A DNA stretch of 38,171 nt from Caulobacterales bacterium. GTDB lineage: Bacteria; Pseudomonadota; Alphaproteobacteria; Caulobacterales; Aquidulcibacteraceae. A program made the position numbers and the translations under genes. A model generated the notes under the pieces. That model was not told where the DNA came from and made no database searches. It saw only the letters and a program-made list of their open reading frames with translations. Below, one piece after another: positions 4,700-25,400 of this stretch; position 1 is the stretch's first letter, and each line of letters opens with the position of its first letter. The stretch lies in contig JBEVJO010000340.1 of NCBI GenBank assembly GCA_040510175.1, positions 1 to 38,171 on the forward strand, read 5' to 3'.

Positions 4700-4731
4700 A
4701 ATAGTTTCGCACAATGGGTAGACTGCGCACT

Positions 4732-4747
4732 GCGCTGTAAACAGCGC
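4732..4747. promoter_or_regulatory. 16-bp palindrome GCGCTGT-AA-ACAGCGC (candidate operator)
   Basis: Perfect 7-bp arms with a 2-nt centre, flanked by a GCGCACT direct repeat (4725-4731 and 4744-4750). It lies about 350 bp upstream of the exoP-like start at 5100. Confidence 0.3.
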
Positions 4748-5099
4748 ACTAACAAGGCCAGCGCCAGCGAGACGTTATATGCTAAGTAAATGTGCGCCGC
4801 GCGCGCCGGTCAGCTGCCTCACTGTGCAGCCTCGGCGACCTGAAGCAAGGTCGGGCGGGATGGGTCTCTATATCGGCGGCGATGTCGCACATTCCCCGCA
4901 AGCGCACCCGCGTCCCGTATAGGCGTTATGTATTGTTGCGATCGCGCAGAGTGGGGTATGAAGTGTGCATAGCCGGGATAGCAGCCGAAGCGCTTCGAAA
5001 CGAATGGGCTCCGTAGATGCCTCGGTTCATGGTCCCAGCCGTAGCGTAAGTCCGAAGGCCGATCATTGTACTCCCGAGTGGAGCTCCTGAAAGTCCAAT

Positions 5100-7595: not shown

Positions 7596-7654
7596 GTCTG
7601 CGCGCCTGCGCCAATAAAGGCCATGACCGCTTCAAGCGCTATGTCTGGAAACCT

Positions 7655-9130
7655 CTACGCGCGGCTTAGGCGCGAGGTTTCGTGCGCGCCATCTCTTGCC
7701 GCGACTGTATCGGCGGGCAGGTCCGGGTAATAATCCTCCTCGTCCCGAGCATCGGCCGCAAGAAGGCTTGCTTCGATGCGCGTGCGCCGGTCGAGGCCGA
7801 GCACGAAGCCTGCCATCAGCCCAAAAATGACGCCTGGATCGGGTGACGCCGACACAAGAAACGCGGGCGTCAGGATCAGCAACGAGGTCAAGCCGCACGC
7901 GATCACTCTTGGCCGCTGCGGCGACCGCACCCGGCGCGTGATCGCGCGCCAAATTTTGCCGAGGTACAACAGCAAGCAGATCACGCCGAATACGCCCATC
8001 GATCCAAGTATCGCCTGAGCGATCCCGGAGGATCGGAAGCTGCCGGGACCAATGCCGACCCCTTTGGATAAAAGGAATGCGTCCCAACCCTGCGCGGCCC
8101 AAATGCCGCGCTCAACCGCGGAAGCGCTAGTGCGTTTATCAATCGTGTTGCTTGTGAATATCTTTGCGAATTTGTCAGCGAAAGCCGGCATCATCGCCGA
8201 AACGCCGATGATCGCGACGACGGAAATGGCCGCCATGACCGCAAAGACCACGAATTTTCGCCGCCGGGTAAGTCGCGGCATGGGGGTGATGACGCCGGCC
8301 ACCAAAATCATCAGAAGGAGCATGCCTAACGTCGCGAAACCGGTGGCCGATGTTGAAAGCCCAATGAGTATCGCGACGCCAAGCGCCAGAAGTCCCGACT
8401 GCGTGCTTTTGACGTCGACAAGCCACATATAGGCAAACAGGATCATGGGCGCTGCACCGAACGCGGCAAATGATGACGGCTCTGGAAAAGAGCCGGAGAT
8501 TCTACGGATGCCGTCTGCGGATTGGCTTAGAATCGCATAGTTGGCTGTTTTCAACCACGCGAGCATGTCGCCAGCGCCCGCGTAGAAGCTCGCTAAATCC
8601 ACCAGCCCGAAAAGAATGAAAAGAAGCGCGGCTATCGTCCAACCCAATGCGAGCGTCGAAAAACCTTTGGGTGACTGGGCCATCATATAACCCGCCACTG
8701 ATGCGAGCGCGGTCAAGATCAGATAGACCGATTGCGTGATATTTTGGCTGGTGAAGGTCAGCAACGTCCGAAAAGGCTGCGGCCGCATCGCAAAGACGCT
8801 CATCGCGCCCTCTAGGAGACGCGGCATGGTGAAGGCGACAATTAGCCCGTAGAGGGCGGCCAGCAATAGATAGCTGTTGGCTTTAATTGCGGAAGCAGCC
8901 AGCTTTGGCTTCCGGTTCGCAATGAATAGACACTTTACGATAACGAACAATACGCAGAAATTCGGCGCCGTAAGGGAGGCCCCGCCAAGCATCGGCAGCG
9001 ACATTGCCTCGGCTGCGCCGAACACGCCGCAGACGACCAAAAGCATTACAAATTCGCGTAGCGGGCGCTTCAGCACCAGCATCAACAGGCATATGCCCGC
9101 GATGAGTAGCCCGTATAATGTGAATCCCAT
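7655..9130 (-). CDS. Polytopic membrane protein of the O-antigen ligase / Wzy polymerase family (likely repeat-unit polymerase)
   Basis: 491-aa ORF with about 11-12 hydrophobic helices. It has a loop with ERGIWAAQGWDAFLLSKGVGIGPGSF, resembling the Wzy_C/O-antigen-ligase signature. It sits in a Wzx/ExoP context. Confidence 0.6.
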   Translation of the reverse strand: MGFTLYGLLIAGICLLMLVLKRPLREFVMLLVVCGVFGAAEAMSLPMLGGASLTAPNFCVLFVIVKCLFIANRKPKLAASAIKANSYLLLAALYGLIVAFTMPRLLEGAMSVFAMRPQPFRTLLTFTSQNITQSVYLILTALASVAGYMMAQSPKGFSTLALGWTIAALLFILFGLVDLASFYAGAGDMLAWLKTANYAILSQSADGIRRISGSFPEPSSFAAFGAAPMILFAYMWLVDVKSTQSGLLALGVAILIGLSTSATGFATLGMLLLMILVAGVITPMPRLTRRRKFVVFAVMAAISVVAIIGVSAMMPAFADKFAKIFTSNTIDKRTSASAVERGIWAAQGWDAFLLSKGVGIGPGSFRSSGIAQAILGSMGVFGVICLLLYLGKIWRAITRRVRSPQRPRVIACGLTSLLILTPAFLVSASPDPGVIFGLMAGFVLGLDRRTRIEASLLAADARDEEDYYPDLPADTVAARDGAHETSRLSRA

Positions 9131-9192: not shown

Positions 9193-9936
9193 ATGAGCGG
9201 GCATGCCGGGGGGCCAGTCTTGACGCTTAAAATCCTCAACGATGAGGTCCAGCTCTGGGTCTGGCCGCTAAATTCCCGTCGCTACGCCATTGAGGAAATC
9301 GAGGCCACGTTGAGCGACGACGAGAAGGCTCGCGCGGCAAGGTTTGTTTTTGAAAAACATGCCGCGCGGTATCGTGCCGGACGTACCCAGTTGCGCGAAA
9401 TTTTAGCCTCGTATCTGGACGTCGGCCCGAGCGAAATTGCGTTTCAATATGGGGCGAACGGCAAACCGGATTTGGCGCCGGCGCTTAACAGCACGCTTCG
9501 CTTCAATCTGGCGCACTCGGAAGACTTGGCCGCGTTGGCGATCACCCGCGACGTGCAAATCGGCTTGGATATCGAGTATGTTCGCCCGATTGAGGACGGC
9601 GTGGCCCGCCATCATTTTTCCCCCAAAGAATATGCGGATCTGTCTTCATTGCAGAGTGAGGGATGGCGAGACGGTTTCTTCCGCTGTTGGACGCGCAAGG
9701 AAGCGGTTATCAAAGCGCTGGGCGACGGACTATCGCTTCCCCTCGACAGTTTTGACGTGACTCTTCTTCCGACGGAACCGGCCCGATTGGTCCGCAACGC
9801 TTTCGATGCTGCGGCGCCAAGCGAGTGGATGCTTCATCACTTTGAGCCGGCGAAGGGGTGCATGGGCGCCATCGCGGCCAATACTAAGGGTCAAAAGCTG
9901 ACGATTACGCCCATGACGGATTTAGGTCAGCTTTGA
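9193..9936 (+). CDS. Sfp-type 4'-phosphopantetheinyl transferase
   Basis: 247-aa ORF with the three PPTase motifs: GKPDL...RFNLAHSEDLA, IGLDIEYV and FFRCWTRKEAVIKALGDG. Confidence 0.9.
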   Translation: MSGHAGGPVLTLKILNDEVQLWVWPLNSRRYAIEEIEATLSDDEKARAARFVFEKHAARYRAGRTQLREILASYLDVGPSEIAFQYGANGKPDLAPALNSTLRFNLAHSEDLAALAITRDVQIGLDIEYVRPIEDGVARHHFSPKEYADLSSLQSEGWRDGFFRCWTRKEAVIKALGDGLSLPLDSFDVTLLPTEPARLVRNAFDAAAPSEWMLHHFEPAKGCMGAIAANTKGQKLTITPMTDLGQL

Positions 9937-9965: not shown

Positions 9966-10964
9966 TCAGTAGCTGGGTTCTCCGGTCAAGCGTTTTGCGG
10001 TTCGGTAGATTGAAGCAACCGTCTCCGCGCGCTCGAACCCCACGACGCGACTCAATGCCGTCAAATAGGATGGGTCCGTTGGGATAAACTGTCCAAACAT
10101 AGCATCGAGCTGCGACAGCCTTTGACGAAAACGCGGGCGGTCATAGCGGTACAACAACCGCATGTAAGAAGAGCATCTGCGAATAAGAGTAGCGCGATCC
10201 ACGGATGACAACTGGTCAAGAGCCGAAAGGTCTCCGTTCGTAATGCGCAGCAAATGCCCGACAAACTGTTCAGTTAGATCGACCGCGGGCCAACGCGCGC
10301 CCGCGCCGCCGAGCCGCCGTTTTAATTGCTGACGCCAGAAAAAAAGCGGTGCATCGCTCGGAACGATGACTTGCCGTGCGCCTTTTCGCGCGAGCCTCAG
10401 ATAAAAGTCCTGATCCTCGTCCACTCTTAGGGCGGGATCGAATCCGCCGACTTCGACGACCCAGTCTCGTCGAAAGAGGCTTTGTCCCAAAGTCAAAAGG
10501 GGCCCTTTCGCCAGTACCTCCAATTCGGTGGGCTGATCTGGGAAGGTTGAACAGTCAATATCTCTGACTGTGCGGACCACATCGCCATCAATCGCAACTT
10601 CCCGCCAGGGAGAACTGACGCAGGCGACGTCCGGCGCAAGGTCCGCAGCGACGTTGAGCTGAAGCTCAAGCTTTTGCGGCGCTAGGAAATCGTCGGCATC
10701 GAGAAACTGAATCCACTCGGCCTGCGTGGCTTTCCAACCGGCATTGCGCGCAGCAGGAAGGCCGGCATTCGATTGGGAGACGATGGTCCAAGGCCCGTTG
10801 AAATCAGCCAAGGCCTCGCGCGCGACGTTTGCGGTGTCATCTTTCGATCCATCGTCAACGACAATTACCTCAAAATCCGCGAGGGTTTGGGTAGTTACGG
10901 TCCGCAGCGTCGCGCCAATATAGTGCGAGAAATTATAGGCGGGAATGACGACAGCTAGTTTCAT
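9966..10964 (-). CDS. Glycosyltransferase, GT2 family
   Basis: 332-aa ORF. N-terminal GT-A fold signature VVIPAYNFSHYIGATLRTVTTQT..FEVIVVDDGSKDDT and a DxD motif in FLDADDF. Confidence 0.9.
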   Translation of the reverse strand: MKLAVVIPAYNFSHYIGATLRTVTTQTLADFEVIVVDDGSKDDTANVAREALADFNGPWTIVSQSNAGLPAARNAGWKATQAEWIQFLDADDFLAPQKLELQLNVAADLAPDVACVSSPWREVAIDGDVVRTVRDIDCSTFPDQPTELEVLAKGPLLTLGQSLFRRDWVVEVGGFDPALRVDEDQDFYLRLARKGARQVIVPSDAPLFFWRQQLKRRLGGAGARWPAVDLTEQFVGHLLRITNGDLSALDQLSSVDRATLIRRCSSYMRLLYRYDRPRFRQRLSQLDAMFGQFIPTDPSYLTALSRVVGFERAETVASIYRTAKRLTGEPSY

Positions 10965-11223
10965 TTTCGAGTTTCAGGTTTCTGCTGATCCGTTCGCGGC
11001 GGCCGAACGCAGCGTGAAGTTGGGCCGCCGAGCTTGGACAAGACGTAAACCGCCCAGGATGGGATTGGCAATTGCGTCGATTGGTTTACGGACTTGCCGC
11101 TCGTTCAATGTGCAAAGCTCTCCTTTAGCGCGAGTTCGAGGCGCTCCAAGCCTGCGCCGGATTTCGGACGCGTCCGCGCTCGCTTATGGTGCGGGTCGAT
11201 TCGAATCCCTTTTCAGGCGCCCC

Positions 11224-12012
11224 ATGTCTTTGTCTCCCTGGAAGCTGCCCGTTCTGAAGCAATTGCGGCAGTGCGGCTGGCTGAACGAAAAACTGCGGCT
11301 GGGGTTCGGACCGTACTGGGGCATGTTCCCTTCCCGCGGTGAAGCGGAACAGTTTCTCAGGCCCGATCGTCGCGCTTCTCCGGACGATGATGAATTGGCG
11401 GAGATGAACGCCGACATATTTTCAACGGTGCATCCGTTCGATTGGCCGATGCTGTTTTTCCTTGGGCAAATGCAAAAACGTGAGCGTTTAAAAACCATCA
11501 CGGATTTTGGCGGCCATGTTGGCGTCAAGTATCACGCTTACAAAACGCAAATGGCCTTTCCGCCGGATTTCCTCTGGCAGGTGGTCGATATTCCAGCGGT
11601 ATGCAAAGCAGGCCGGCGCCGCCAGGGAGACGACAAGACCAATCTGGTCTATCATGAAAACCTAAAGGACACGGCGCCATGCGATGTTCTGATCTGCTCC
11701 GGCGTTGTGCAGTATTTGGACCACAGTCTCAGCGATGTGATCAAGCGGCTCCCCCAGAGAGCCGGCATGGTTCTTCTCAACAAGGTCGCGGTAACTGAAG
11801 GCCCGGCCTTTTATACGCTCGAATCGCTAGGCTTCGTCCGCGTTCCCTATCTCGTCACGACCATCCCGGCGCTTGATGCGATCCGTGAAGAGCACGGTTA
11901 CAGACTCTTGGCGCGATGGGAAATTCCTGACCGCGTCTTCACAATCGCCCATCAGCGCGGACATCGAAATATGAGGATGATCGGTGAAGCCTGGTCCGCC
12001 GATCCTGTCTGA
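11224..12012 (+). CDS. Putative SAM-dependent methyltransferase-like protein (resembles the TIGR04325-type family from memory)
   Basis: The ORF is open from 10945, but that start overlaps the divergent GT2 start. ATG at 11224 (or 11059) is more plausible. YWGMFPSRGEAEQF followed by a glycine-rich ITDFGGHVGVKY and WQVVDIPAV matches my recollection of that family. The assignment is tentative. Confidence 0.5.
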   Translation: MSLSPWKLPVLKQLRQCGWLNEKLRLGFGPYWGMFPSRGEAEQFLRPDRRASPDDDELAEMNADIFSTVHPFDWPMLFFLGQMQKRERLKTITDFGGHVGVKYHAYKTQMAFPPDFLWQVVDIPAVCKAGRRRQGDDKTNLVYHENLKDTAPCDVLICSGVVQYLDHSLSDVIKRLPQRAGMVLLNKVAVTEGPAFYTLESLGFVRVPYLVTTIPALDAIREEHGYRLLARWEIPDRVFTIAHQRGHRNMRMIGEAWSADPV

Positions 12013-12020
12013 AGTTTTTG

Positions 12021-12953
12021 CTACGCGCCTTGGACGAAACGCTTATGAAGATGGACCGCTTTGCGCCGGATGGGCGTCGCGACCCGCATCGTTGCGCCTT
12101 TGAGTGCGTCCCGCAGCGGTTGAGATCCGGGTTGCGGCGGCTTTAGGCCGGCGGAGCGCAAATAGGAATTGAACGCGTTGACGCGCGCATGTTGACGGCC
12201 CCGCGGCGTTTCAAAGACGAGGGAATACGATACCGATCGTCCTGGCCCCGTCTCCACCCAATGCGGCGAATTTTGGGGCTGATGCAGGCCGAGCCCCGGA
12301 GATAGTTTAAACGTTTCGCGCGCTGAGTCCGGCAGGCGCTCAAGATCGACGTTGCACACCGAGACTTCGCCGCGGGCATAAAATCGCTCGAGCTCCGGCG
12401 CCGGAACCACTGAAGGAGAATAAGTATGAAACTGCTTCTCCCCTTCAACTTGCAGGAAAAAATTGACCTCTGGATCGAAATGCACGGGCGTTATCGCGCG
12501 CGCTGAAGAGATGAAAAGCGCAGCGCGCGCGCGAAACACCGGGCCTTCGATCCCGCACATCGTTCTGATTTCTTCCAGCAGAGAATCTCTCAGCGCCCGA
12601 AAACCCTCGTCGTGGTTTTCCAGAAGTTTGAGCAGAATACGCACGGGTTGCTTCGGCAATCTTACGAGCGCTTCTTTCGGTGTGCACATACCATGCGCGA
12701 CATCGAAAAATGACGTCGAGGCGCTGGGCGCTGGCGTTGAAACAAAATAGTCCCGGCCCTCGGCCGTATACAGGTCGGCGAGGCGCGTGATGTAGTCGTC
12801 GCTAAACAAGTCCAGCTTTGCGAGTTGATGCTCGATTCCAAACGCGGCTTTATCGAACGCGCGCGCGGGAAGGCCCGGCTTTATCACCGCATCCCCTGCG
12901 CTACCGCTAGGGATCGCACGAAGCATCTTCGGCGTCTGCAGGCTATTCAGCAC
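12021..12953 (-). CDS. JmjC/cupin-type Fe(II)/2-oxoglutarate oxygenase-like protein (paralogue B)
   Basis: 310-aa ORF. HxD...H facial-triad candidates in ITPVHFDPEVNFFLQVEGEK and SPHWVETG. It is alignable with the upstream paralogue (YHFDLEPSFLLQVSGQK ... GPHWVQNG). Its start overlaps the upstream stop by 7 nt. Confidence 0.7.
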   Translation of the reverse strand: MLNSLQTPKMLRAIPSGSAGDAVIKPGLPARAFDKAAFGIEHQLAKLDLFSDDYITRLADLYTAEGRDYFVSTPAPSASTSFFDVAHGMCTPKEALVRLPKQPVRILLKLLENHDEGFRALRDSLLEEIRTMCGIEGPVFRARAALFISSARAITPVHFDPEVNFFLQVEGEKQFHTYSPSVVPAPELERFYARGEVSVCNVDLERLPDSARETFKLSPGLGLHQPQNSPHWVETGPGRSVSYSLVFETPRGRQHARVNAFNSYLRSAGLKPPQPGSQPLRDALKGATMRVATPIRRKAVHLHKRFVQGA

Positions 12954-13939
12954 CCGAGCCCCCTATTGTCGCCTACATCAGCGCGGACCGGTTTCCAGAC
13001 GGGATACAGTTCCGCGGGATTGCGCTTTGCCGTGATCGACTGACCGACGCGGCGCACCTGTCGTGCGAGCGACCAGAGTCCGGCTTTCGTGTCGTCTAGC
13101 CATGGTTTGGCGCCGGGGGGCGTCGGCTTGAGCCCGAGCTTACGGAGACGGCTATTGACCGCGTACGCATGTTGCAGCCGCTGATGCGACGACCGCATGT
13201 CGAAATTCACGTTCACGGATATCGAAACGTCAGCTCCGTTCTGAACCCAATGCGGACCGGTGCTTGGAAAGTGCACGCCAAGGCCCGGCGTTAAATCATA
13301 CTGCGCGGCGTCGTGTTGGCGCTCCGGCTTGTAAATCGCGGCGCTGTGTTCGCCCGCGCAATAGGTTTCGAGTTCCTGCTCCGTGGTCAAAGTGCGATCG
13401 CCATTGGGCCACGCGAACACAGTCTTCTGTCCCGACACCTGCAGCAGAAAGCTGGGTTCAAGGTCGAAATGATACGCGGTCTTTCGGTTCGGCGAATTGA
13501 TAAAGATCAGACATTCGCCAATAGACACGTCGTCTCTGAACGACTGTGGTGACGCTTCGAATACTTCCTGCAAGAGATCGCGTAAGACGGGGCCAAATAC
13601 GGCGTCTTGCTCAACATGCTTCAGGACGACGACGCTGTTGGAGGTGCTGATCCCCTCAATCGTTTCGCGCAGTGTTAGCCGCTTTGCCGGCTGCGCGTTC
13701 CAGCCGTCGGTAATATCAATCGTGCCATTCTGCCAATATTTGAAACCATCGTAATCGGGAATGCGCTCGGCCAGAGCAACGAGCCCATCGATCGTACAGA
13801 TCGGCTGTTTCGCGAGATTATGCCGAAAGCCGAAATGCCGCCTGTTGACGCCCAGAAATTGCGGCCGATCGCTTTGTGCAATGAGCGCGGAATCCTGTGC
13901 TGGCTTGTCCGGTCTGCTTTGATTGTCCATGGGAGTCAT
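12947..13939 (-). CDS. JmjC/cupin-type Fe(II)/2-oxoglutarate oxygenase-like protein (paralogue A)
   Basis: The ORF is open to 14107. ATG at 13939 is preceded by GAGGA and lies 16 nt after the upstream stop, so it is preferred. Motifs YHFDLE and GPHWVQNG, then a double-stranded beta-helix-like region. Confidence 0.7.
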   Translation of the reverse strand: MTPMDNQSRPDKPAQDSALIAQSDRPQFLGVNRRHFGFRHNLAKQPICTIDGLVALAERIPDYDGFKYWQNGTIDITDGWNAQPAKRLTLRETIEGISTSNSVVVLKHVEQDAVFGPVLRDLLQEVFEASPQSFRDDVSIGECLIFINSPNRKTAYHFDLEPSFLLQVSGQKTVFAWPNGDRTLTTEQELETYCAGEHSAAIYKPERQHDAAQYDLTPGLGVHFPSTGPHWVQNGADVSISVNVNFDMRSSHQRLQHAYAVNSRLRKLGLKPTPPGAKPWLDDTKAGLWSLARQVRRVGQSITAKRNPAELYPVWKPVRADVGDNRGLGC

Positions 13940-13955
13940 GGCGCCATCCTCGTCT

Positions 13956-15266
13956 TCACTGCACGGATTGAACTGTTTCGTCAGCGCGCACGCCCTTTGG
14001 GAGCATCCCGATCTGCCGGAATCCCTGAACGCCCTCGGTCCTCTCCGGGTCGGGAATTTGCGCCTCTGGAAGGTGGGCGAGATTCCTGTCGAAAAAGCCG
14101 CGAACATAGGTGTGAACGATTTCGCTGACCTTGACCGGGTCGACCCGGAGCCAGCTTTTGTTCAGATGAGGTTCGAAGGCGTCATCACGAAAGTTTTCGT
14201 GGATGGCTTTTCTCACGCGAACGCCCACGCTACCTGGCCGCGCCGCCAATTGTGCATGCATGTCTATATCCCGGTCGTTGATCATGGCCCAATAGCGCAC
14301 GTCCGGGATCGGGGAGGCTAAGTCCTCTCTCGTTGGCATAGTGAAATCGCTGATGATGAACATATAGGGTGCGCTGAAACCACGGCTCAGCGCCTCGCCG
14401 AACAGACTGCCATCGATATTCACCACGGCCACGATGCGCGAATCCATCGTGGCGGCTTCGGACACAGATGATCCTCCAAACGAATACCCCAGCACCCCCA
14501 CGCGATCGAAGTCGATCGCGCCGGCCGGCGACGAACTTCCATCGGCGCCCACACATGAAGCGAGGCGATCCAGGGCGTTGAGCGCTTTTTTGGCTTGGCG
14601 CTGCACACGCTCGTCGCTCAGTGCAATTGTGCGTTCATAGGCCGGTCCAGAGGTAAAATTCCAATCCTCCAGTCGAACGGCTGCGTCGTGAGCGCTCTCG
14701 TTTGGGGGATTATCGTTGGCGATGTCGTCCAGCGCCAAGACCAAATAGCCGTACGACGCCAGCATTCCGAGGAGGCGCGTATTGTCATCCCGCGTGCTTT
14801 TGAGGTGCGGGATATAAAGGATCAATTTCCGCGGCGTGCTGGTCTGGGCGATCGGAAGATTGCGGAGGCATGTCCGGGCTGTTTCCGTCGCCGCGGTCGC
14901 CGCTGACGATCCGCTGGCGGACGGAAACCAAATTTCCGCGCGGATATCTTCGCCGCCCGCCGGATCCAGGGATGGCAGCGCGAGGCTCGCATGCGCCGCC
15001 TTGAACGGTCCTACGGCCATGCGGGTTTGCGACCGGCGCACGGATTCGGCGAGCGCCCATGGCGTCAGCAAGGCACCGGCCAATGCGAATCCGCCGATAA
15101 GAAGCAGCGCGGTGGGCAGGATGCGCGGACCGGGCAAACTCCGGACTGTGAGCGTGGCGAGCAAGATCATCGCCAGCGCAAAGATCGCCGCATAAATCCA
15201 GCCGATCCGTCCGCTTAAGGCCACGAGAATGCTTTCGAGTGCGATGCGCACGCTACCCTGTCCCAC
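13956..15266 (-). CDS. Membrane-tethered alpha/beta-fold serine hydrolase (PAF-acetylhydrolase / lipase-like)
   Basis: 436-aa ORF with a GTG start sharing 1 nt with the TAG stop of the NRPS gene. Two N-terminal TM helices are followed by a basic stretch (ESVRRSQTR). Nucleophile elbow GYSFGGSS. C-terminal KAIHENFRDD resembles the His motif of PAF-AH-type hydrolases. Confidence 0.75.
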   Translation of the reverse strand: MGQGSVRIALESILVALSGRIGWIYAAIFALAMILLATLTVRSLPGPRILPTALLLIGGFALAGALLTPWALAESVRRSQTRMAVGPFKAAHASLALPSLDPAGGEDIRAEIWFPSASGSSAATAATETARTCLRNLPIAQTSTPRKLILYIPHLKSTRDDNTRLLGMLASYGYLVLALDDIANDNPPNESAHDAAVRLEDWNFTSGPAYERTIALSDERVQRQAKKALNALDRLASCVGADGSSSPAGAIDFDRVGVLGYSFGGSSVSEAATMDSRIVAVVNIDGSLFGEALSRGFSAPYMFIISDFTMPTREDLASPIPDVRYWAMINDRDIDMHAQLAARPGSVGVRVRKAIHENFRDDAFEPHLNKSWLRVDPVKVSEIVHTYVRGFFDRNLAHLPEAQIPDPERTEGVQGFRQIGMLPKGVRADETVQSVQ

Positions 15267-18200
15267 TATCTCAGCGCCTTAACGCCGTCGATCGCCTCAA
15301 GCATCGGGCGGAGCGTCTCAGCAATGATGTCCGCGCCCTTGCCGATAAATATCTCCGCATGCCAGCCTGGCGCGCGCGCCACCACCAGTTCGCCGGTGAC
15401 ATGACGCCGCCATCCCAGATCTGGATCAAGGAACTCCGCGCCGACTTCGTCGCTGAGAAAAACCGCGACGTCGCCATCATAGCGGCGGGGAACGTAATGC
15501 CGGCGCGCTTCCTCAAGCATCGGCTGGAACCACAGATTGCTCCACGCTTCTCCGAGATCGCTTTGCTTTAGCCAGCCGAGGCGAATGAGCAGAGGCGTCA
15601 ATCCCGCGCGATTAAAAATTTGATATGAACCAAGAACATAAGAAAGGGAGATTTCACCCTTCGCGACGCGCGCGATGTGGCGTCCCGCCACGCGCAATCT
15701 GTAGATCATGCTGTGCAGGAAACGGCGGCCTCTCGGCGCCGCGCGAAGATAATTTGGCGAGGTCGCGTCGGCTTGGATGATAAGAGGGACATCCTCCCCG
15801 GCGCGACGCAATTGTTGCGCGACTTCCAAAGCGATGGCGCCCGAAACGCAAAGGCCCAACAATATGTAGGGCCCCGATGGCCGCACGCGGCGGATGGCGT
15901 CGACAAAGCTTGATGCGATGGTTTCGAGCGTCTGAAAAGCGAGTTCTCGCGGCTGCTCGGGATCATACATCTGAATCCCGATAAAGGGCCTGTCGACCCC
16001 GATGCGCTGCGCCAAATTGTAATAGATGACGGTATTGTTGATCGCGATGATCGGCGTTTTGTCGCCGAAAGGTTGAATTTCAAAAATCTCCGCGTTCGCC
16101 CCGCCCTCAGGAAGCGGGTCGCTCGCCGGCGCTGTATGCTGCTCACGAGAAGCGATGGGCGAATGCGTCACAGCGTGACGGGCAAAGGCGCGCAGCGTTG
16201 GCTCGCGAAAAAGAACGGCCACATTGGGCGCCCAACCGAGTTGTTTTTTGACGTCCGCCAACATGCGCAAAGCGAGAAGAGAATATCCGCCCAGCTCGAA
16301 AAAATTGTCTTCTGGATTTACGTCCGCCACGCGCAGTAACGACGCCCAGATACCGGCGATCGTTTTCTCGGCGTTCGCGTGTTGCGGTTCAGGCCTTTGG
16401 GCCGGAGATGTCGTTGCCGCCGGCGTCGCCGGCCTTGTCGGCTGGCGATTCGGCCAGGCGATTGCGCCGTCAGCGCTTTTGGGAAGGCGCAGATAAACGC
16501 TTATATCGATCTGTGCGTCGGCGGTCGCGGCGTTGTCCCGAAGCGCATTCAAAAGAGCGTCGGGCAAACGCTCAAGAGAAATGGTCACGTCCGGATGCGG
16601 CGTCACCATCGCCCGATAGAATTCCGCGCCGGTCAGCCCGGGTTGCAGGCGCACAACGACGTCTTCCACCTGTCCGGAAGCGCGCAGGACGTCAGCGATC
16701 AGCGCTGCGGCAGGATCATCCAGCGGGTTTGAAATCTGTGCGGCTGATCGATCGCGTTCCGTGGTGAAAGTCGACAGTCGGACGGCGGGGTCAATAATTG
16801 CGTTTTCGATCACACGCCGCCAAAGGCTGAGAAGCTGCTCAATCGTGGAAGTCGCATACAAAGACGTGTTGTACTCGATATGGAGCCGCCACTCGTCTTG
16901 AACGCCGACGAGCTCGAACGAGAGGTCATAAAGCGCGTCAGTAGAGGTCGCCGGGGCGGCCGCCACAAACTCCAGATCGCCAAAACGCGCGGCTTCCAGG
17001 AAGGTCCGGCGGACAACAACATTGACCGCGATCAAAGGGGTTCGCGACGGGTCGCGTGGAGGTTTCAAGAGTTCGACCAGGTGATCGAATGGCATGTCCT
17101 GATGCGCCAGCGCCGCGGTGACGCGTTCGTTGGCGTCGAAAACGCAATCGGCAAGGGAACCGGTCGCGCTTGGCCGCAGACGCAAAACCAGATTGTTGAT
17201 GAAGACGCCGATCAAGGCCTCTTCGTCCACTTCGCCGCGCGCCGCAGCCTGCGTCCCAATAACGATGTCGTTTTCTCGGGTAAACGCTTGCAGAGCGGCG
17301 CCCACCGTGGCGCATCCGAAAGCGAAGGTCGTAACCCCGAGCGTTTGCGCCGCCGCATCGAGTCTGGCCGCCAAAGCGCCTGAGAGTTTATCGGAGGCAA
17401 TTGCGCTCTGCGTGGTTCGGCTGGCGGCGCGAGGATGATCGGGCGAAACCTCGAAGTAAGGCGCATCGGCAAGGTGACTGAGCCAATAGTCCCGGCTCTC
17501 CTCGAACGCCGCGCTTTTCAGGCGCGCCTGCTGAGCGACTGCAAAATCCGCATACTGCAGATGCAGCGGCGGCAGGTCCGGCGTCCGGCCTTCTCTTAGA
17601 GTGTGCAGCAAACTGCCCAGCTCGGTTGCAAAGACGCGGATCGACCATCCGTCAAATACGCTCTGATGAAAAACGACGATCAGATGACTAATCGAGGCCG
17701 ATGTGCGCACCAGCATAGCGCGCATCAAAGGCGGAACGGTCAGATCAAAGGGGGCCTGTGCAAAGGCGCGCCGCAATTTGTGAATTTCAGTCTGCAGAGC
17801 GTCCGCCGGCAAATGGGAAAGATCAACTCTGTCGAGCTTGAACTCTACAGCGTCGGCAATCTGCTGAGCCGGACCCGTTTCTTGCGCAATGATGCGGGTC
17901 CGCAATATCTCGTGCCGTGAGATGATAATTTTAAGTGCGGTTTCCAGGTGCTTGCTAGCAAGCGGGCCGCGCAGTTCCCATGCGATCGGGATGTTCAGCG
18001 CGGGCGATCCGGGATTTAGCTGATCCAGGAACCAGCATCTAACTTGGGGTGGGGTACAGGGAAACAATGCAGCATCGTCAGCGCGCACGGGTTTTATGTC
18101 GGGATCAAGCGCATGCAGACGCATTTGCGGCGCTTCAACGAAGGACTCGAACGCTGCACGCCAAGCCGCAAGCAAAGTCAGCGCGGTGTCTTCCGAGAAT

Positions 18201-19426
18201 CGCGCGGGATCATACTCACACGAGATGCGCCAACCCTCAGGCCGGCCAATCATGAAGAAGCTGAGATCGTAAAGCGCCCCCGCCGAATGAGACGGCAGGT
18301 CAATGAGATTGATATTCCCATAGCGCGCATTTTCGATGAATGAGCGCTGCACGATCAGATTGGTCTGGTAGGGCCGTGCGGAGGCTTCAAAGGGCGCCGT
18401 TTGATGTGCCAGAGCTTCGCGCACATAGGCGCCGATACGCTTGAGAAGAACGCGGAGACTTGGATTGCCGCTCGCATCGAGGTTCAGCAAAAGCGTATTG
18501 GCGAGCGGCCCGACGATATTTTCCAAATCGACGACGTCGCGGCCCGCCACTTGGGTGCCGATGACGACTTGATCGCTATCGGATCGCGCACGAAGAACCA
18601 GAGCCAACGCCGCCGCAGCAGCGCTGAACATCGAAACCCCCGTCAATTTGCATTCGCGCTCCAGGCCTGCCGTGACGCTTTCCGGCAGCAGCATCGAGAC
18701 GATCGGCGCGGCGTTGTCCTGAGGCGGCGAAACGGGATCGTATGGAATCGCGGCTAATGGAGCGTTAGCGCTCTGCTGCCGCCAATAATCGAGATCCGCA
18801 TCGAACGCGCTGCCGGCGAGGCATTCGTTCTGCCACAGAGAATAGTCGACATACTGCAACGGTAATTCGGGCAGGCGTGCCGCATGGCCAGATGCGCGAG
18901 CTTCGATGACGGTTCCAAGTTCGCGCGCAAGTACGCCGATCGACCATCCATCGCTGATCATGCCATGCAAAGTGACAAGAAGGATTGCGCAATCTGGCCG
19001 CAGCACCAAAAGCGTGGCGCGCCATGGCGGTTCGGCGTGCAAATCAAAACCGGTCCGTGCTTCCTTTTCGCCGATGGCGATCGCCTGCGGCTCCCGCTCC
19101 TCGATCGCAAAGCGCGTGAGGTCAACGATGCCAAAGGCGGGCTGATGGCCTTGCCGGACGCGCTGCATCAACTTGCCGCCGGTCATTGTGAAAAGTGTGC
19201 GCAATGATTCATGACGCGCCGTCAGGACATCAAATGCGGCGCGGATCGACGCCGGATCAATTGGGCCTTCGAGGCGCCAGCGGACGGCGACATTCCGCGC
19301 CGCGCTTGCCGGATTTAACTGCTCTTCGCGCCACAAGCGCAGTTGAATAGGCGACGCTGGAAAGTCCGCGAAGTCCGGGCTGGGATCGGCATGGCCTAAG
19401 GGATCGGCGTCGGCGCGAGTGGTCAT
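15266..19426 (-). CDS. NRPS termination protein: C - C - (A C-terminal subdomain remnant) - PCP - TE
   Basis: 1386-aa ORF. The ATGA overlap at 19423-19426 couples it to the upstream megasynthase. Domain motifs are listed in the sub-features. Confidence 0.92.
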   Translation of the reverse strand: MTTRADADPLGHADPSPDFADFPASPIQLRLWREEQLNPASAARNVAVRWRLEGPIDPASIRAAFDVLTARHESLRTLFTMTGGKLMQRVRQGHQPAFGIVDLTRFAIEEREPQAIAIGEKEARTGFDLHAEPPWRATLLVLRPDCAILLVTLHGMISDGWSIGVLARELGTVIEARASGHAARLPELPLQYVDYSLWQNECLAGSAFDADLDYWRQQSANAPLAAIPYDPVSPPQDNAAPIVSMLLPESVTAGLERECKLTGVSMFSAAAAALALVLRARSDSDQVVIGTQVAGRDVVDLENIVGPLANTLLLNLDASGNPSLRVLLKRIGAYVREALAHQTAPFEASARPYQTNLIVQRSFIENARYGNINLIDLPSHSAGALYDLSFFMIGRPEGWRISCEYDPARFSEDTALTLLAAWRAAFESFVEAPQMRLHALDPDIKPVRADDAALFPCTPPQVRCWFLDQLNPGSPALNIPIAWELRGPLASKHLETALKIIISRHEILRTRIIAQETGPAQQIADAVEFKLDRVDLSHLPADALQTEIHKLRRAFAQAPFDLTVPPLMRAMLVRTSASISHLIVVFHQSVFDGWSIRVFATELGSLLHTLREGRTPDLPPLHLQYADFAVAQQARLKSAAFEESRDYWLSHLADAPYFEVSPDHPRAASRTTQSAIASDKLSGALAARLDAAAQTLGVTTFAFGCATVGAALQAFTRENDIVIGTQAAARGEVDEEALIGVFINNLVLRLRPSATGSLADCVFDANERVTAALAHQDMPFDHLVELLKPPRDPSRTPLIAVNVVVRRTFLEAARFGDLEFVAAAPATSTDALYDLSFELVGVQDEWRLHIEYNTSLYATSTIEQLLSLWRRVIENAIIDPAVRLSTFTTERDRSAAQISNPLDDPAAALIADVLRASGQVEDVVVRLQPGLTGAEFYRAMVTPHPDVTISLERLPDALLNALRDNAATADAQIDISVYLRLPKSADGAIAWPNRQPTRPATPAATTSPAQRPEPQHANAEKTIAGIWASLLRVADVNPEDNFFELGGYSLLALRMLADVKKQLGWAPNVAVLFREPTLRAFARHAVTHSPIASREQHTAPASDPLPEGGANAEIFEIQPFGDKTPIIAINNTVIYYNLAQRIGVDRPFIGIQMYDPEQPRELAFQTLETIASSFVDAIRRVRPSGPYILLGLCVSGAIALEVAQQLRRAGEDVPLIIQADATSPNYLRAAPRGRRFLHSMIYRLRVAGRHIARVAKGEISLSYVLGSYQIFNRAGLTPLLIRLGWLKQSDLGEAWSNLWFQPMLEEARRHYVPRRYDGDVAVFLSDEVGAEFLDPDLGWRRHVTGELVVARAPGWHAEIFIGKGADIIAETLRPMLEAIDGVKALR
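15287..16093 (-). other. Thioesterase domain with Cys at the nucleophile-elbow position (GLCVSG)
   Basis: Type I TE-like alpha/beta fold. The elbow at nt 15839-15856 translates to GLCVSG where GxSxG is expected. Candidate Asp is in LIIQADATS and candidate His in APGWHAEIF. Confidence 0.75.
16172..16372 (-). other. Peptidyl carrier protein domain
   Basis: IAGIWASLLRVADVNPEDNFFELGGYSLLALRM, with the phosphopantetheine Ser at residue 1049. Confidence 0.85.
16442..16714 (-). other. Orphan remnant of an adenylation-domain C-terminal subdomain (A8-A10 region) without an A core
   Basis: aa about 905-995: IADVLRASGQVEDVVVRL..AEFYRAMV...LPDALLNAL...YLRLPKSADGAIAWPN. This mirrors the A-sub pattern (IE..L...V.eaaV.. 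/ LP.YM.P / LP.T.NGK.DR). The A10 Lys is lost and no A1-A7 motifs occur anywhere in this protein. Confidence 0.6.
16772..18064 (-). other. Condensation domain 2, non-canonical active site HQSVFDG
   Basis: C1-like motif TPPQVRCWFLDQL is present. The core motif at nt 17648-17668 translates to HQSVFDG, so the second His is replaced by Gln. Confidence 0.8.
18107..19363 (-). other. Condensation domain 1, non-canonical active site HGMISDG
   Basis: C1 motif SPIQLRLW is present. The core motif at nt 18947-18967 translates to HGMISDG, so the second His of HHxxxDG is Gly. I verified this by reverse-complementing the nucleotides. Confidence 0.8.
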
Positions 19427-22400
19427 GTCGGCCGGTTCCGGCGACCGCCGCTGCGGAATGCGGCCAGAGACGGCGCGTCAGCAACAGTGCGTTGATCTGA
19501 GCGTGCAGCAGATGCGATCGCCGCCAGCGCCGCGATGCTGGGATTCTGCAGAACATCTTTTGCTTTTAACGGCAAGCCGCGTTCGGCCATGCGCGCGGCA
19601 ATCCGGAAGAGGTGGATCGAGTCAGCGCCGAGCGCAAACAGGCTGTCGGTGGTGCTGATTTCGCGAACGCCGAGAACATCGCTCCATATCTCCAGCAGCG
19701 TTTCTTCCATAGAATTGACGGGCAGAACCCGATCGCGCGCCGGCTCATTTTCCAAATTCGGATTCGGCAGCGCTTTGCGGTCTAGCTTTCCGTTGCCGGT
19801 CATGGGCATGCGCGCAAGCGCGACCCACGCCGTGGGGCACATATAATCTGGCAGCTGCGAGCGCAAATGCAGCGCCAGATCGCTCGTTGCGGGCGCAGCG
19901 CCGGGCGCTGGAACATAATAGCCGACGAGGCGCGCTTCACCTGTCGCGCCGTCGCGCAAGGCGACCGCAGCCTCCGAGACGCCGGAGGCTGCACGAAGCA
20001 GAGTTTCGATCTCTTCCAGCTCGATACGAAAGCCGCGCAGTTTGATCTGCTGATCGGCGCGCCCAAGATGTTGAATGCGCCCGTCAGGAAGCCGCCGCGC
20101 GATGTCGCCGGTATTATACAGCCGTCGCGGCGCCGCGCCGTTCAGCGAGATAAATCGAAACGCGGCGTCCGTTAGATCGCGCCGGCCAAAATAGCCTTTC
20201 GCCAGGCCTTCGCCGCCAATATACAAAAGACCCGGCGCGCCCAACGGGCATAACTGGTCATTCGAATCCAGAATATGCAATTGCGTATTGGCGATCGGCT
20301 CGCCGATGGTGATGAGTCCCGGGCCGACCCGCGAAACAGATGACCATATCGTCGTTTCTGTCGGACCATACATATTCCACAGTTCGGCGTCCGGCGCGCT
20401 TGTAAGGCTGTCCGCGAGGTCGCGCGGCAGAGGCTCGCCTCCGCACAGCATTTTGAGCGAGCGCGAAGGCTTGAACCCCGCCTCGAGCAATATCCGCCAC
20501 AAAGACGGAGTGGCTTGCAGCATGGTTGCGCGGTGCTTGTTGATCAGGTCCAGCAAGCCGAACCCGCTCCGCACATCATCCCTGTTCGCGATGACCACAC
20601 GCGCGCCGAGGACCAGCGGCAAGAAGAGTTCCAGCGCCGCAATGTCAAAGGACACGGTGGTGACCGCCACGATGCAATCGTTGGCGTTACAGCCTGGCTT
20701 GCGCGCCATGGAGGCGAGGAAGTTCGTCAAAGCGCGATGCGGCACCTCGACTCCTTTCGGCTCACCGGTCGAGCCGGAGGTAAAGATGACATAGGCGATT
20801 GCCCCCTCGCCTAAGGCAACGGCCGCGCCAGTTTTGTCTTCGGAATCGATCAGCGCGCGATCGCGGTCCAGACTGACGACAATGGACGCATCAGGCGCAA
20901 TGGGAAGCGCCCGGTCATTGTGGCATACAAGCGCCGACACTTGCGCGGTCGCGAGTACGTGGCGCAGGCGCTCCGGCGGATGATCGATGTCGAGCGGAAC
21001 GTAAGCGTGCCCAGCTTTCAGTACGCCCAGCATCGACGCCAGCAAGTCCAGCGAGCGATCCAGGGCGATTGCAACGCGCTTGCCCGAGCCGGGCACACGG
21101 CGCGCGAGATAGCGTGCGAATTGATTGGCGCGCGCGTCAAGGTCGGCATAGGTGAATGCCTGCGCGCCGGCGATCGCCGCGATTGCGTGCGGCGTTCTGC
21201 GGGCCTGCACCTCGAAAAGACGGTGCAATGGCAGATCCGTGAATTCGGTCTGCGTGTGATTGAGCGTTTCCACCATCCACGACCGTTCGTCGCGCGATAG
21301 CAGGTTGAGGGATTGGATCGGCTGAGTCAGGTCTTCAACGAAGCTTTCAAGAATGGTCCGATAATGGCCCATCCAGCGCTCGATCGTTGCAGCATCAAAA
21401 ATATCGCCGTTGAAGTCGCAATCGATGCGCAGCCCTTCGCTGGATTCAGCGACATTGAAGAACAGATCGAAATTCGACGCAGCCTTAGGGTTGGGTCGAA
21501 CGCGCGCCGTCAAATTCTCAAGCTTGAGATCGCCGCCAAATTTTTCGAAGTTAAACTGCACTTCGGTGAGCGGCAGACGATTGATGTCGCGCGGAACCTT
21601 CAAATCGCGCACCAGCGTGCCGAACGTGTAAGACTGATGATCGAAGGCGCGCAGCAGCGCTTGTTTGACTTTCTCGAGGTGATCAGCGACGGGCGCCGCC
21701 GGATCAAAACCGACGCGAACGGGCAGCAAATTGACGCAATGTCCGACCAGGCCCGCGTCTTCCTCCAGGCTTTGCCCAGCCGTCGGGACCGCGACGACAA
21801 CGTCGCTATGGTTCGCCAGCCGGCCGATCAGAATCTGGAACGCCGTGAAGAGCGTCGCGAACGGCGTGCAACCTCGCTGAGCGCCGGCCTTTTTGATTTT
21901 CCGGGTCAGGATTTCATCGATGAAGGCGGTGCTGGTGGCGCCGTCATAGGTGCGAACTTGCGGACGCGCGCGATCGGCTGGCAAATCCGGCAACGCCGGA
22001 ATGTCTAAATATTGACCTGCCCAGAAGCTTTGGGCGCTGCGCGTATCGGCGGTTTGTTGAGCCTGCGCCAATGCATAGGCGCGATATTGCGGCGCCGGCG
22101 GCAGACCGGCCGCAAGACCGGCCAAGCGCGCGTCATAGCACGCGGCGAGTTCGCTGATCACCACGCCCGCGGACCAACCATCGAACACGATATGATGGGC
22201 GCTGAAGCAAAGAACGTGCGCGTTGTCGCCAAGTCGGACGACAAAGGCGCGGACCAATGGTCCATTGACCAAGTCGAATGGCGTTCTAGCGTCGTCCGCC
22301 AATATATCGGCCAGCGCGTCTTCGCCGCCGCTTGCGCTGACGTCCACCGAGCCTAGCTCAAGCTCAAGCTGCGGGCGCACAAACATCTGCTCGCCGGTTT

Positions 22401-25400
22401 CACCGAAATAAGCGCGCAAAGCGTCGTGCCGCGCCACGAGGTCATTCACGGCGTCTTCAAGCGCGCGCACATTGAGCAGGCCGTCAAGTTCAAGACGAAA
22501 TGATTCATTGAAGGCGCAGGAGGCGGTGTCGCCCATCTGCGCCGCCAGCCAGACTTCCTTCTGCATTTCGGTAAGTGGCGCCTGCCACGGCAGATCGGCG
22601 ACTGGCGCCGTGATTAACGCTGCTATTTCCGCCGCAGGCGCCAAACTAGCGTCTATGCTGTGTGCGCCCAAGATGCCGACGCTCTGCAAGGCATCCAGCG
22701 CTTCGCCGAAGACTGTTTCGATGCGTTGAAAATCGGCGTCGGAATGCGCCGTGGTGATGAAGCAGGGAAAGCCTTCTTGGATGTTTACCCCGAGTGATCG
22801 GGCATACAAATAGAAAAGGCTCCCGAGCGCATCTTCGGCGCCGAAGTTCAGCATGAACCAGGACGAGAACGTTTCAGCGCGTGTTTTGACGCCGCGATCC
22901 GCGAACAGCGCATTCAGCCGGTCAACCAGTTGGCGGGTGCGCGCTTCCAGGCCCTGCTGGAGCGCTGCGCCTTGAGTCTCCAAATGCGTGAGGACAGCTT
23001 GAGCCGCCGCCACAACAAGCGGATGGCGCACAAAGGTTCCGGCGAAGAATATCGGCGCGACTTCAGGCACGCTGTCATCGCCGAACTGCCAGGCGCCGCC
23101 GTCGAGCGCATCCATATAAGCGGGCGTGCCGGCAAGAATGCCGATGGGCATCCCGCCGCCGATCACTTTGCCGTAGGTCGCCATGTCGGCCTTGATGCCC
23201 CACAGCGCTTGCATGCCGCCGGGATGGGTTCGGAAACCGGTCACCACCTCATCAAAAACAAGGGCCGCGCCGTTGGCTGCGGTGATCGCCCTAAGTTCTT
23301 TCAGGAATTCAACGGGACGCAATTCCGGATGGCGGCTTTGCACCGGCTCGACAATAATTGCGGCGAGCGTCTCCGCGTTGTCCCGAATCCAGGACAGGCT
23401 TTCGCTTTCGCCGTAGCCGAGCACGACCATGTTGCTGACCGCGCTGGCTGGAATTCCGGCGGAGATCGGCAACGCGCGGGGCGGCGCGCCACGGCGGGCG
23501 CCTTTCACCAGCACTTCATCGAACTGGCCGTGATAGTCATTGGAGAAAACCACAACGGTTTCGCGGCCGCTGACGGCGCGCGCGACACGCATCGCGGCCA
23601 TGACAGCTTCCGAGCCTGTGTTGCAGAAGGTCACCCGCTCCAGACCGACCATTTTGGCGATCCGGCGCGCAACGTCACCGGCGGCATCGCTTTGCGGACC
23701 AATCGGGAAGCCTTTCGTCAATTGCTCCTGGAGGGCTTCGACGACAAAGTCGGGGCTGTGGCCGAACGCCGTCTGCCCATAGCCATTAACGAGATCGATG
23801 TAGGAGTTGCCGTCCAGGTCCCAGATTGTCGACCCTTTGGCGCGTGACGCCACGATCGGGAAAATCGCGTTCTTCCACTCGGCTCTGAAACCGGACACCG
23901 AGCGTGGGTCGGCCAGATGCGGGCGATGCTCCGCCGCATAAGATTTCGACTTCGGCATCTGCTCCGACACGCGTGCCACCAGCGCGTCGACAAACGACTT
24001 CTGGGCCGGCGTCAGGGTTTCGGTTCGCGCGTTCTTATCGAACATGCGGAAACGCGAAGGCTGCCCGTCGGCATTCGGCGCGGCGGCCGCCGGAATGGCT
24101 GAGATCGCGGCCGGCGCAGGCGCTACAGCTGCAGGCTGTGCTTGCTGGCTTTGGGCTGAAGGACTTTCGCGGCGGCCGCCGAGCGCATCGAGCTGCCGGT
24201 CCATCAAATTCTGCATCGCGCTGAGTTGCGCCTGGAAAATCGCCAGCATGTCGCCACCCGCCGCTATTGGGGCAAGCGGCGCGGAGGCTGCGGGTGCTGC
24301 AACAACTGGCGCCGCGCTGACTTGAGCGATGGGCGCTTCGATTTGCGCAACGGGATCTGCGGGCATCGCCGCATCGAGAAAATCCGCGAGCGACGCGATA
24401 TCCGGATAGTCGCCGAGCAGCTGACGGAACGTGATCTTTATCTTGAAATGCTTTTGAATCTGCTGCGCGACCTGGCCGAGAAAGAGCGAGTCAAAGCCGA
24501 ACTCCAGATAGGGCGTGGTCCATTCCGTATCGGCGATCGGCTCGCCTGAGAGGCCCTCAATGATCCGCGCAATATCCGCACAGAGGCGCGTGGTCCGCTG
24601 CCCGGATTTTGTTGCAGGCGAAGGCGGGGCGCTCTCACTCATTTCGGGCATGGATAAATCCGCTGGAGGCATTGGTTGCTGAAGCGTCGCAGGATCGCGC
24701 GGTTCTGGGCTCTTGGCGGCGGCGCTGGACGATGTTTTTGGCGCCTCGATCCAATAGCTGCGACGTTCAAAGGGATAGGTCGGCAGACTCGACAACCGGG
24801 GCGCGCTCGATGCCGGCCAGCGAACCGGCGCGCCGCTGGTCCAAAGCCGGGCCGTCGCCTCGGCAAAAACACGATCTTCGTCTGACGCGTTGGAAAACTC
24901 AGGAAGGGAGGCGATAACGCAATCGTAGCTGGCCTTGCTGAGCCCTTGCATCGCAAACGTCGAAAGCGTGCGTCCGGGTCCCACTTCCAGCAGGACAGGC
25001 CGCGTGTCCGCGACCAATCGCGCCAACGCATCGGCAAAACGCACAGGCTCACGGCAATGCAGGGTCCAATACGATTTCGAGGTCAGCAGGTCCTGAGTCG
25101 CCCAATCCCCGGTTACGCATGAGACAAACGGAATATTGGGAGCATGCAACTTCATGCCGTTCGCATGAATCGCGAGCGCGGCGACCACGTCATCCATCAT
25201 CGAAGAATGAAATGCGTGCGAGGTATGTAGCCTGCGATGTTGAATATCGCGCTGGTTGAGCGCGCGCTCGAAAGCAGCGATGCGGGGGAAGTCGCCTGCG
25301 ACCACGCAAAGCGACGGGGCATTGATGGCTGCGATGTCCAGACCCTCGTCAAGCAGCGCCTTTAGCGCCGACTCGGACGTCCGCACGGCCAGCATGGCGC

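Follow-up and report, generated by a model that had tools for sequence, protein, structure and literature searches.

The last nonribosomal peptide synthetase (NRPS) of an operon on contig JBEVJO010000340.1 of a Caulobacterales bacterium (assembly GCA_040510175.1) begins with two condensation (C) domains, C1 and C2, neither of which has the second of the two histidines in the HHxxxDG core motif. Throughout, 'the window' is the whole stretch that we analysed, 38,171 nucleotides (nt) of this contig. Comparison of the protein with its relatives is suggestive, and not proof, of the His-less tandem tracking the evolutionary decay of the last glycine module of the assembly line, and not the recruitment of the two oxygenases encoded downstream, which an earlier note on this DNA had proposed. 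Our tentative preference, held with somewhat less than even confidence, is for a combined explanation in which C2 would be a still-competent acyl-transfer domain with Gln in place of the His, serving a trans-loaded carrier (T2) ahead of a thioesterase (TE) with a Cys nucleophile, while C1 would be a lineage-specific, non-catalytic adaptor or relic.

Two condensation domains without the second histidine

The terminal protein (1386 amino acids (aa); 15266-19426, minus strand, as are all features of this section) has the layout C1-C2-(remnant of an adenylation (A) domain)-thiolation (T)-TE. Pfam matches to its translation comprise two full-length Condensation domains (494.9 bits in two stretches, the second at aa 456-898), then PP-binding (aa 1022-1084) and then Thioesterase, with no carrier between the two C domains, which are joined by a linker of ~14 residues. 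C1 spans aa 16-450 (18077-19381) and C2 spans aa 451-900 (16727-18076). Their core motifs are HGMISDG (aa 154-160, nt 18947-18967) and HQSVFDG (aa 587-593, nt 17648-17668), and the C domain of the preceding protein (C0) reads HHIVFDG (nt 22177-22197), exactly as the earlier note had placed them. When aligned by phmmer with the solved C domains of Txo2 and Txo1, Gly155 of C1 and Gln588 of C2 stand opposite the second His. A single ortholog, P0002 (54% identical, from an alphaproteobacterial metagenome-assembled genome), has the same architecture with Ser in C1 (HSIICDG) and again Gln in C2; below, we write these states by the first two letters of the motif, as HH, HQ, HS, HG and so on. Because the ortholog shares the architecture and has HS and HQ, the altered motifs are not the product of chance or sequencing error, and both the tandem without an intervening carrier and the missing second His, first noticed in the earlier note, stand.

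Both domains have the full-length PF00668 fold, with its two chloramphenicol acetyltransferase-like lobes, that is expected of an elongation C domain (LCL/DCL). An AlphaFold2 (AF2) model of C1 predicts a complete C fold (pLDDT 91.2, pTM 0.89), and Foldseek against the Protein Data Bank (PDB) aligned the model to the C domains of Txo2, TycC and DhbF with a TM-score of ~0.8. The score against an X domain, the C-like domain of glycopeptide NRPSs, was ~0.81, so that prediction of C1 alone confirms the fold and gives no discrimination between catalytic C domains and X domains. The C7 motif of C1 is partly deleted. Neither domain is followed in cis by a cognate A-T pair as in an elongation module: C1 leads directly into C2, and C2 into an A-domain remnant without the A core and then into T.

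The remnant (aa 901-1015, ~115 aa; 16382-16726) appears to be a decaying C-terminal subdomain of an A domain, recognisable by the Pfam AMP-binding_C matches in relatives. The position of the A10 Lys is, by our reading, occupied by Ala (ADGAIAWP) and therefore the module seems to have lost its A domain. T2 (16157-16381) lacks a cognate A domain but its Ser is intact (FFELGGYSL), and the TE domain (15269-16066) has a Cys nucleophile (GLCVSG, nt 15839-15856) and a His in GWHAEIF.

Between the window and the ortholog locus, identity is 58% for C1, 54% for C2, 61% for the canonical C0, 63% for the A domain and 62% for TE, as against 32% for the A remnant. Since C1 and C2 are about as conserved as the canonical upstream C domain, unlike the remnant, they are not decaying and are probably under purifying selection. 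As a consensus we took the 81 positions at which the C domains of relatives with the layout C-A-T-TE show at least 93% conservation, and we counted departures from it. Proteins with a single HQ domain depart at 7 of these positions, C2 at 17, C1 at 20 (including the C7 deletion) and C-TE proteins without a T domain at 23-25. The second-His position of C1, which is Gly in the window and Ser in its single ortholog, appears for that reason to be unconstrained.

Loss of the second histidine appears to track loss of the adenylation domain

To place the terminal protein we relied on searches that covered a collection of 5.8 billion protein sequences, in which P0002 was the only other protein with the C1-C2-T-TE layout, and on a homolog set of 183 C domains. 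The relatives belong to a three-gene cassette consisting of an A-T protein with an A domain that we take to be Val-like, a protein with ketosynthase (KS), acyltransferase (AT), acyl carrier protein (ACP), aminotransferase, C, A and T domains, whose A-domain code in the window, DILQLGMIWK, we take to be a Gly code, and the terminal protein. The cassette was found in 11 of the 11 further distinct loci that we looked up (from Alphaproteobacteria, Terriglobales, activated sludge and soil) as well as in many metagenome loci, and it occurs across phyla. The terminal protein comes in five architectures: C-A-T-TE, C-T-TE, C-TE without T, C-C-T-TE and C-C-A-T-TE. In a neighbour-joining (NJ) tree the terminal C domains group as a single clade apart from generic NRPS C domains, with the exception of the second C domain of the P0053, L116 and L138 tandem proteins, and C-C tandems arose several times in the family by different routes.

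Most C domains of the homolog set (154 of 183) are HH. HQ was found in 22, and 21 of these are in proteins without an A domain. By architecture, the C-A-T-TE proteins are HH in 28 cases and HQ in one, the C-C-A-T-TE proteins HH/HH in nine cases and HH/HP in two, and the C-T-TE proteins HQ in 19 cases, HH in ten and HE in one. The four C-TE proteins without T are HS (L091, 7756-10014), HQ (L093, 6656-8965), HS (L092, 9957-12191, P0261) and HH (P0259). The only HQ proteins that still have an A domain are P0120 and that of L106 (14202-18092, minus strand), which are 77% identical to each other; their A codes, DRIYLYLIWT and DRVYLSLVWE, are degenerate and without Lys517, so that the pair has the look of a halfway stage, with an A domain that is dead but still present.

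C2, its ortholog and the other A-less HQ proteins are monophyletic in the NJ tree with a single reversal to HH. On the same tree at least six losses of the A domain can be counted. The change from His to Gln took place at least three independent times (in the HQ clade, in P0120/L106 and in L093). Gln is thus a recurrent, fixed replacement of the second His. The pattern across the family is suggestive of a rule by which the second His persists if an intact Gly A domain comes next, save for the second C domain of a few tandems, and is replaced (by Gln, Ser, Gly or Glu) chiefly in modules whose A domain, or whose A and T domains together, are missing or dead.

The other tandems of the family usually have a motif defect of a different kind (HHxxxDY, HHxxxDC or HPxxxDG) in one of their two domains, located in the first C domain in P0053, P0054, P0059 and L116 and in the second in P0003 and in P0012, P0017 and L108. 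These motifs suggest that, as a rule, constraint is relaxed or altered on one of the two domains in each tandem.

A word-indexed search with C1 alone turned up C-T and T-less C-TE relatives and no further C1-C2 proteins. A HMMER search of 1.84 billion representative sequences with C1 returned only giant NRPSs with many C domains, which rank high by summed score, and no new C1 orthologs. A profile search of contigs with an alignment of the A-less terminal proteins gave 80 loci, none of which belonged to the family; FFELGGHSL and HHxxxDGWSI are too general as signatures and generic NRPSs were retrieved instead. Descent of C1 from the C-TE proteins without T was considered and rejected, since the domains closest to C1 (42-44% identity) are HH and belong to proteins with the layouts C-A-T-TE, C-T-TE and C-T; the His-less C-TE domains are not among them.

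A last glycine module that may be loaded in trans

At L094, which has the full cassette, the upstream and the terminal A domain share the code DILQLGMIWK, and this is also the terminal code in most of the A-containing relatives. Every locus that keeps T2 without an A domain of its own has a Gly-coding A domain upstream, and at the three T-less loci (L091-L093) the upstream A codes are not Gly-specific. The T2 Ser is invariant in 26 A-less relatives. With the same code available upstream, the last module of the full cassette, C-A(Gly)-T-TE, would be redundant, which would explain why its A domain was lost repeatedly; by this account the module has been eroding, with T gone too in some lineages.

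We propose that the upstream Gly A domain would load Gly onto T2 in trans, that C2 would take the chain bound to T1 (the carrier of the preceding protein) and join it to the Gly on T2, with Gln588 doing the positioning and hydrogen-bonding job of the missing His, and that the Cys-TE would then release the product. C1 would be an extra N-terminal C fold, specific to this lineage and kept for a docking or architectural role. The redundancy of the two Gly codes makes it plausible that the upstream A domain charges T2, and A-less modules that are loaded in trans by the A domain of another module are described for thalassospiramide and WS9326A (PMC10510592). As in those systems, the C-T module lacks an A domain, its carrier Ser is intact and the required specificity is found elsewhere in the line; here the upstream A code is the very code of the A domain that was lost, as judged from relatives. 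The C domains of the thalassospiramide and WS9326A modules differ in that they keep HHxxxDG, whereas here A loss comes with the change from His to Gln and the loading itself is what we infer.

That a C domain without the second His could still work has precedent. This residue is dispensable in several C domains and its role is now seen as positioning of the acceptor amine (PMC10510592; PMC11546977). The earlier note stated that most characterised C domains need the second His for catalysis; given C domains that are active without it (PMC10510592), to infer loss of catalysis from loss of this His is too strong, although C1 may well be non-catalytic. The closest parallel to C2 is ORF18 of streptothricin biosynthesis, an A-less protein with C and peptidyl carrier protein (PCP) domains and a natural HQxxxDM motif, which, as a review relates it, is active in coupling a PCP-bound chain to the free amine of an amino sugar, with lowered activity upon exchange of the Gln for Ala (Maruyama et al. 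2012 via PMC11546977). Since this natural HQ domain is active, C2 should not be assumed dead. A literature search for the wording HQxxxDG gave nothing; the precedent is written HQxxxDM and surfaced through the review.

Several points weigh against the combined explanation. The correlation between His and A domain rests on few independent events and on an NJ tree without support values, which makes it suggestive and not proven. The lineage of P0012, P0017 and L108 has HP in a C domain that an intact Gly A domain immediately follows. Canonical condensation by C2 onto Gly-S-T2 offers no obvious reason why loss of the His should track loss of the A domain, and changed or lost chemistry would fit the pattern equally well. 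C1 and C2 are both more diverged from the family consensus than the single-C HQ proteins. As to C1, its conservation between the orthologs equals that of the active domains, and it could have an unrecognised catalytic role, and the repeated origin of tandem C domains hints at a positive function.

Other roles for C1 and C2

The alternative that survives best, and which we nevertheless regard as unlikely, is transfer to a free acceptor: C2, and possibly C1 or the C domain of the T-less C-TE relatives, would join the carrier-bound chain to an amine, for example to the amino sugar of a nucleotide- or lipid-linked glycan, for decoration of an exopolysaccharide (EPS) or formation of a glycoconjugate. 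A non-carrier-bound amine or amino-sugar acceptor was also the second suggestion of the earlier note, and it gains from the activity of ORF18, from the dispensability of the second His in some C domains and from the T-less C-TE relatives, which have no acceptor carrier in cis. Polysaccharide and amino-sugar genes recur beside the cassette and the operon in the window sits within a Wzx/Wzy-type EPS locus, although such a neighbourhood is not universal (it is lacking at L084, L088 and L092). ORF18, as the review describes it, and C2 have in common a Gln at the second His of the C3 motif (C1, being HG, does not share it), a carrier without an A domain, A domains that act (or, for C2, would act) in trans and an amino-sugar context. 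The likeness is one of motif and description, and the motif itself differs (HQxxxDM against HQxxFDG). Moreover, ORF18 as described there releases its chain onto the free amine without a TE, whereas C2 is preceded by an extra C domain and followed by a conserved T domain with an invariant Ser and by a Cys-TE, a layout that fits an elongating and terminating module and not a releasing amide synthase. The Gly-coding upstream A domain at all loci that keep T2 fits trans-loading.

Rather less probable is a fixed and convergently evolved His-to-Gln C domain with chemistry that would be new for C domains, either handing of the chain to the free thiol of a carrier that bears no amino acid, or attachment through an amide bond of a (diamino-acyl)-glycyl unit made by the line to an amino sugar of the EPS repeat. 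If the glycan version were true, an assembly line would be modifying a glycan of the cell surface covalently, and C1 would be an adaptor dedicated to that task.

We give similarly low weight to the idea that both domains are dead, persisting as C folds for docking or architecture, with the Cys-TE taking the chain straight from T1, which the TE of the T-less C-TE relatives has to do in any case, and T2 being vestigial or otherwise used. It is in keeping with the loss of the His alongside A and T, with the full C fold of C-TE proteins that have no T domain at all, and with the departures of C1 and C2 from the consensus. However, a broad clade has Gln as its fixed state and Gln evolved convergently on at least three occasions, which does not look like drift; the single-C HQ domains keep 74 of the 81 conserved positions, the T2 Ser is invariant, and the Gln of the natural HQ domain ORF18 matters for its activity as the review has it (PMC11546977). 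Standard pipelines would flag both C domains as inactive, as antiSMASH 8 does for C domains without the catalytic residues (PMC12230676); the comparative pattern is more informative. The family amounts to a natural experiment on the role of the second His, a long-debated point in NRPS enzymology, and offers ready-made variants for biochemical comparison, namely HH, HQ, HS and HG domains with or without A and T.

Branching of the kind found in icosalide synthesis is improbable. There, in IcoA module 3 (C-Cs-A-T), two C domains without a carrier between them share one acceptor T domain (PMC10510592); by analogy, C1 and C2 would act on the same T2 intermediate with two donors, for example by acylating one of the amines of the predicted diamine, to give a branched or dimeric product. 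Tandem C-C arrangements that arose several times, mostly with HH in both domains, and a chain that is predicted to bear two free amines would suit this idea. In icosalide both domains are active and the second is starter-type and followed by A-T, whereas in the window both motifs are altered, the second-His position of C1 looks unconstrained and the A domain is missing. Neither C1 nor C2 is starter-like, the match to the CDA-C1 starter domain being weak (E 3e-6 and 3e-12) compared with 1e-53 to elongation C domains, and no second donor carrier is evident except the loading T.

JmjC oxygenases occur independently of the His-less domains

The two JmjC/cupin-8 oxygenase genes of the operon, a (12947-13939) and b (12021-12953; both minus strand), are paralogs (30% identity, E = 1e-26), and both proteins have HxD...H triads. 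The earlier note suggested that the two C domains, in the manner of an X domain, have a function in recruitment; each would then bring one of these enzymes to a carrier-bound intermediate. In its favour, both genes are translationally coupled to the NRPS operon, at L091 a JmjC gene overlaps the end of the C(HS)-TE gene, at L093 a JmjC gene comes after the genes for C(HQ)-TE and a hydrolase, and C-like recruitment domains are known: the X domain, and in siderophore NRPSs the interface domain, which belongs to the C superfamily as a non-canonical member and reportedly was proposed by Reitz et al. 2019 (cited in PMC12230676) to position a stand-alone Fe(II)/2-oxoglutarate hydroxylase.

JmjC a and b are, though, both frequent neighbours of the cassette in general, often paired and with a TIGR04325 methyltransferase. 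Pairs adjoin terminal proteins whose only C domain is a canonical HH domain with an intact Gly A domain after it (L143 and L157, both C(HH)-A(Gly)-T-TE) and also HH/HH tandem proteins (L116, L138/139), in addition to JmjC genes beside single His-less domains (L086, L091, L093, L106). At the only other His-less tandem locus, that of the ortholog (L001), no JmjC gene is present within 10 kb, and a JmjC a ortholog of that genome (68% identical) lies on another contig among unrelated genes. Because the JmjC genes also stand beside canonical HH terminal proteins, they appear to be family-wide accessory genes, and their products are probably ordinary tailoring hydroxylases of the whole cassette family that are independent of the degenerate C domains. 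Pairs of cupin-8 proteins have been proposed to hydroxylate NRPS-bound residues in the laxaphycin cluster, where there is no such domain (PMC7524897).

The X domain (PDB 4TX2/4TX3, from Tcp12) resembles C1 in being a C fold without a working HHxxxDG motif, which in the X domain serves, and in C1 would serve, a non-condensing role. Yet the X domain recruits P450 enzymes and stands between the last T and TE, whereas C1 and C2 precede T, there is no P450 gene in the window, and the candidate partners do not co-occur specifically with the degenerate domain. In sequence, C1 and C2 are closer to ordinary C domains: phmmer gave E-values of 9.6e-33 and 4.5e-29 to the X domain 4tx2 as against 1.4e-53 and 2.6e-54 to Txo2, with TycC C domains also matched at E ~1e-53. 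The interface domain fares no better. Its partner is an Asp/His beta-hydroxylase of the TauD/SyrP type and not a JmjC/cupin-8 protein, the window has Cupin_8/JmjC neighbours and no TauD-family gene, and the pattern of gene co-occurrence argues against dependence. Taken together, these results make oxygenase recruitment by C1 and C2 the least probable of the alternatives, and we set it aside as very unlikely.

The operon and its predicted product

The operon consists of six translationally coupled genes on the minus strand, running from 29420 to 12021 and encoding, in this order, A-T; KS-AT-ACP-aminotransferase(class III)-C-A-T; C1-C2-T-TE; a hydrolase resembling PAF-AH and PETase; and the two JmjC/cupin-8 proteins. 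The loading A-T didomain (27420-29420) has the code DAFWLGGTFK, presumably Val-like, and its A domain scores 384 bits against the NCBIfam amino-acid adenylation model TIGR01733 (cut-off 317). A fatty-acyl-AMP ligase, as in iturin-like lipopeptide synthesis, was ruled out for this gene by the above-cut-off match and the Val-like code with Asp235 and Lys517. The second protein (19423-27423), with C0, the Gly-coding A domain and T1, has its stop codon overlapping the start of the terminal gene.

From these domains the line is predicted to make a Val-derived beta-keto-gamma-amino acyl chain, which would be transaminated to a vicinal diamine and extended with Gly. A vicinal 3,4-diamino acid would thus be built on the carrier, analogous to the step of biotin synthesis from 7-keto-8-aminopelargonic acid (KAPA) to 7,8-diaminopelargonic acid (DAPA). 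We found no characterised product in the literature with this logic of a Val starter and on-line transamination, and literature searches for the cassette or its product returned no characterised member. The nucleophile is Cys, and not Ser, in 79 of 80 TE domains across the family. Known examples of Cys-TEs are those of ObiF and SulM, which form a beta-lactone and a beta-lactam (PMC10510592), and by analogy the nucleophile hints at an unusual release or cyclisation step.

The hydrolase (13956-15266, minus strand) is encoded by the most conserved accessory gene of the cassette, which in most cassettes stands immediately behind the terminal synthetase gene, irrespective of how the terminal protein is built. 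Since it also follows single-C and A-containing terminal proteins, a tie to C1 was rejected. TE-like shuttling enzymes load an A-less module in WS9326A (PMC10510592), and proofreading, shuttling and product tailoring are candidate roles for the hydrolase. On the plus strand, the window further has the TIGR04325-family methyltransferase gene that recurs beside JmjC genes (10945-12012) and one for a Sfp-type phosphopantetheinyl transferase (9193-9936), which also adjoins the cassette in L084, L088, L092 and L094.

Surroundings of the cassette

EPS genes flank the operon on both sides (1-9130 and 29519-37262) in a locus of the Wzx/Wzy type. Among them are paralogs of Wzz/tyrosine kinase (186-2018 and 5100-7595), a priming sugar transferase (3333-4121), a Wzx flippase (31739-33388) and glycosyltransferases of families GT2 and GT4. 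An open reading frame (ORF) of 491 aa (7655-9130, minus strand), which has ~11 hydrophobic segments and no Pfam or NCBIfam match, probably encodes the Wzy-type polymerase or a ligase of the locus. Recurrent neighbours of the cassette in the window and in L003, L086, L087, L091, L093, L094, L109, L122 and L157 are the priming sugar transferase, Wzx, GT2 and GT4 glycosyltransferases, DegT, a deacetylase and exosortase, and in Salipiger the exosortase EpsH adjoins the cassette; the organisms that share such neighbours are not closely related. A cassette with a Val-like starter, on-line transamination, one or two Gly, a Cys-TE and JmjC hydroxylases is uncharacterised, and its polysaccharide context may point to a new surface-associated or glycan-linked metabolite.

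The mechanical ORF of JmjC a (12947-14107, minus strand) is 386 aa long, as against 330 aa for the database protein P0121 and 310-330 aa for homologs. Its true start is probably at 13939; the hydrolase gene ends at 13956. At L091, T1 is found on a separate upstream protein of 161 aa. At the ortholog locus (L001, 15662-24173), from which JmjC genes are absent, another assembly line, unrelated to the first, lies behind the hydrolase gene; its first protein has formyltransferase, AMP-binding, luciferase-like and methyltransferase matches among others and is followed by a KS-AT-ketoreductase polyketide synthase.

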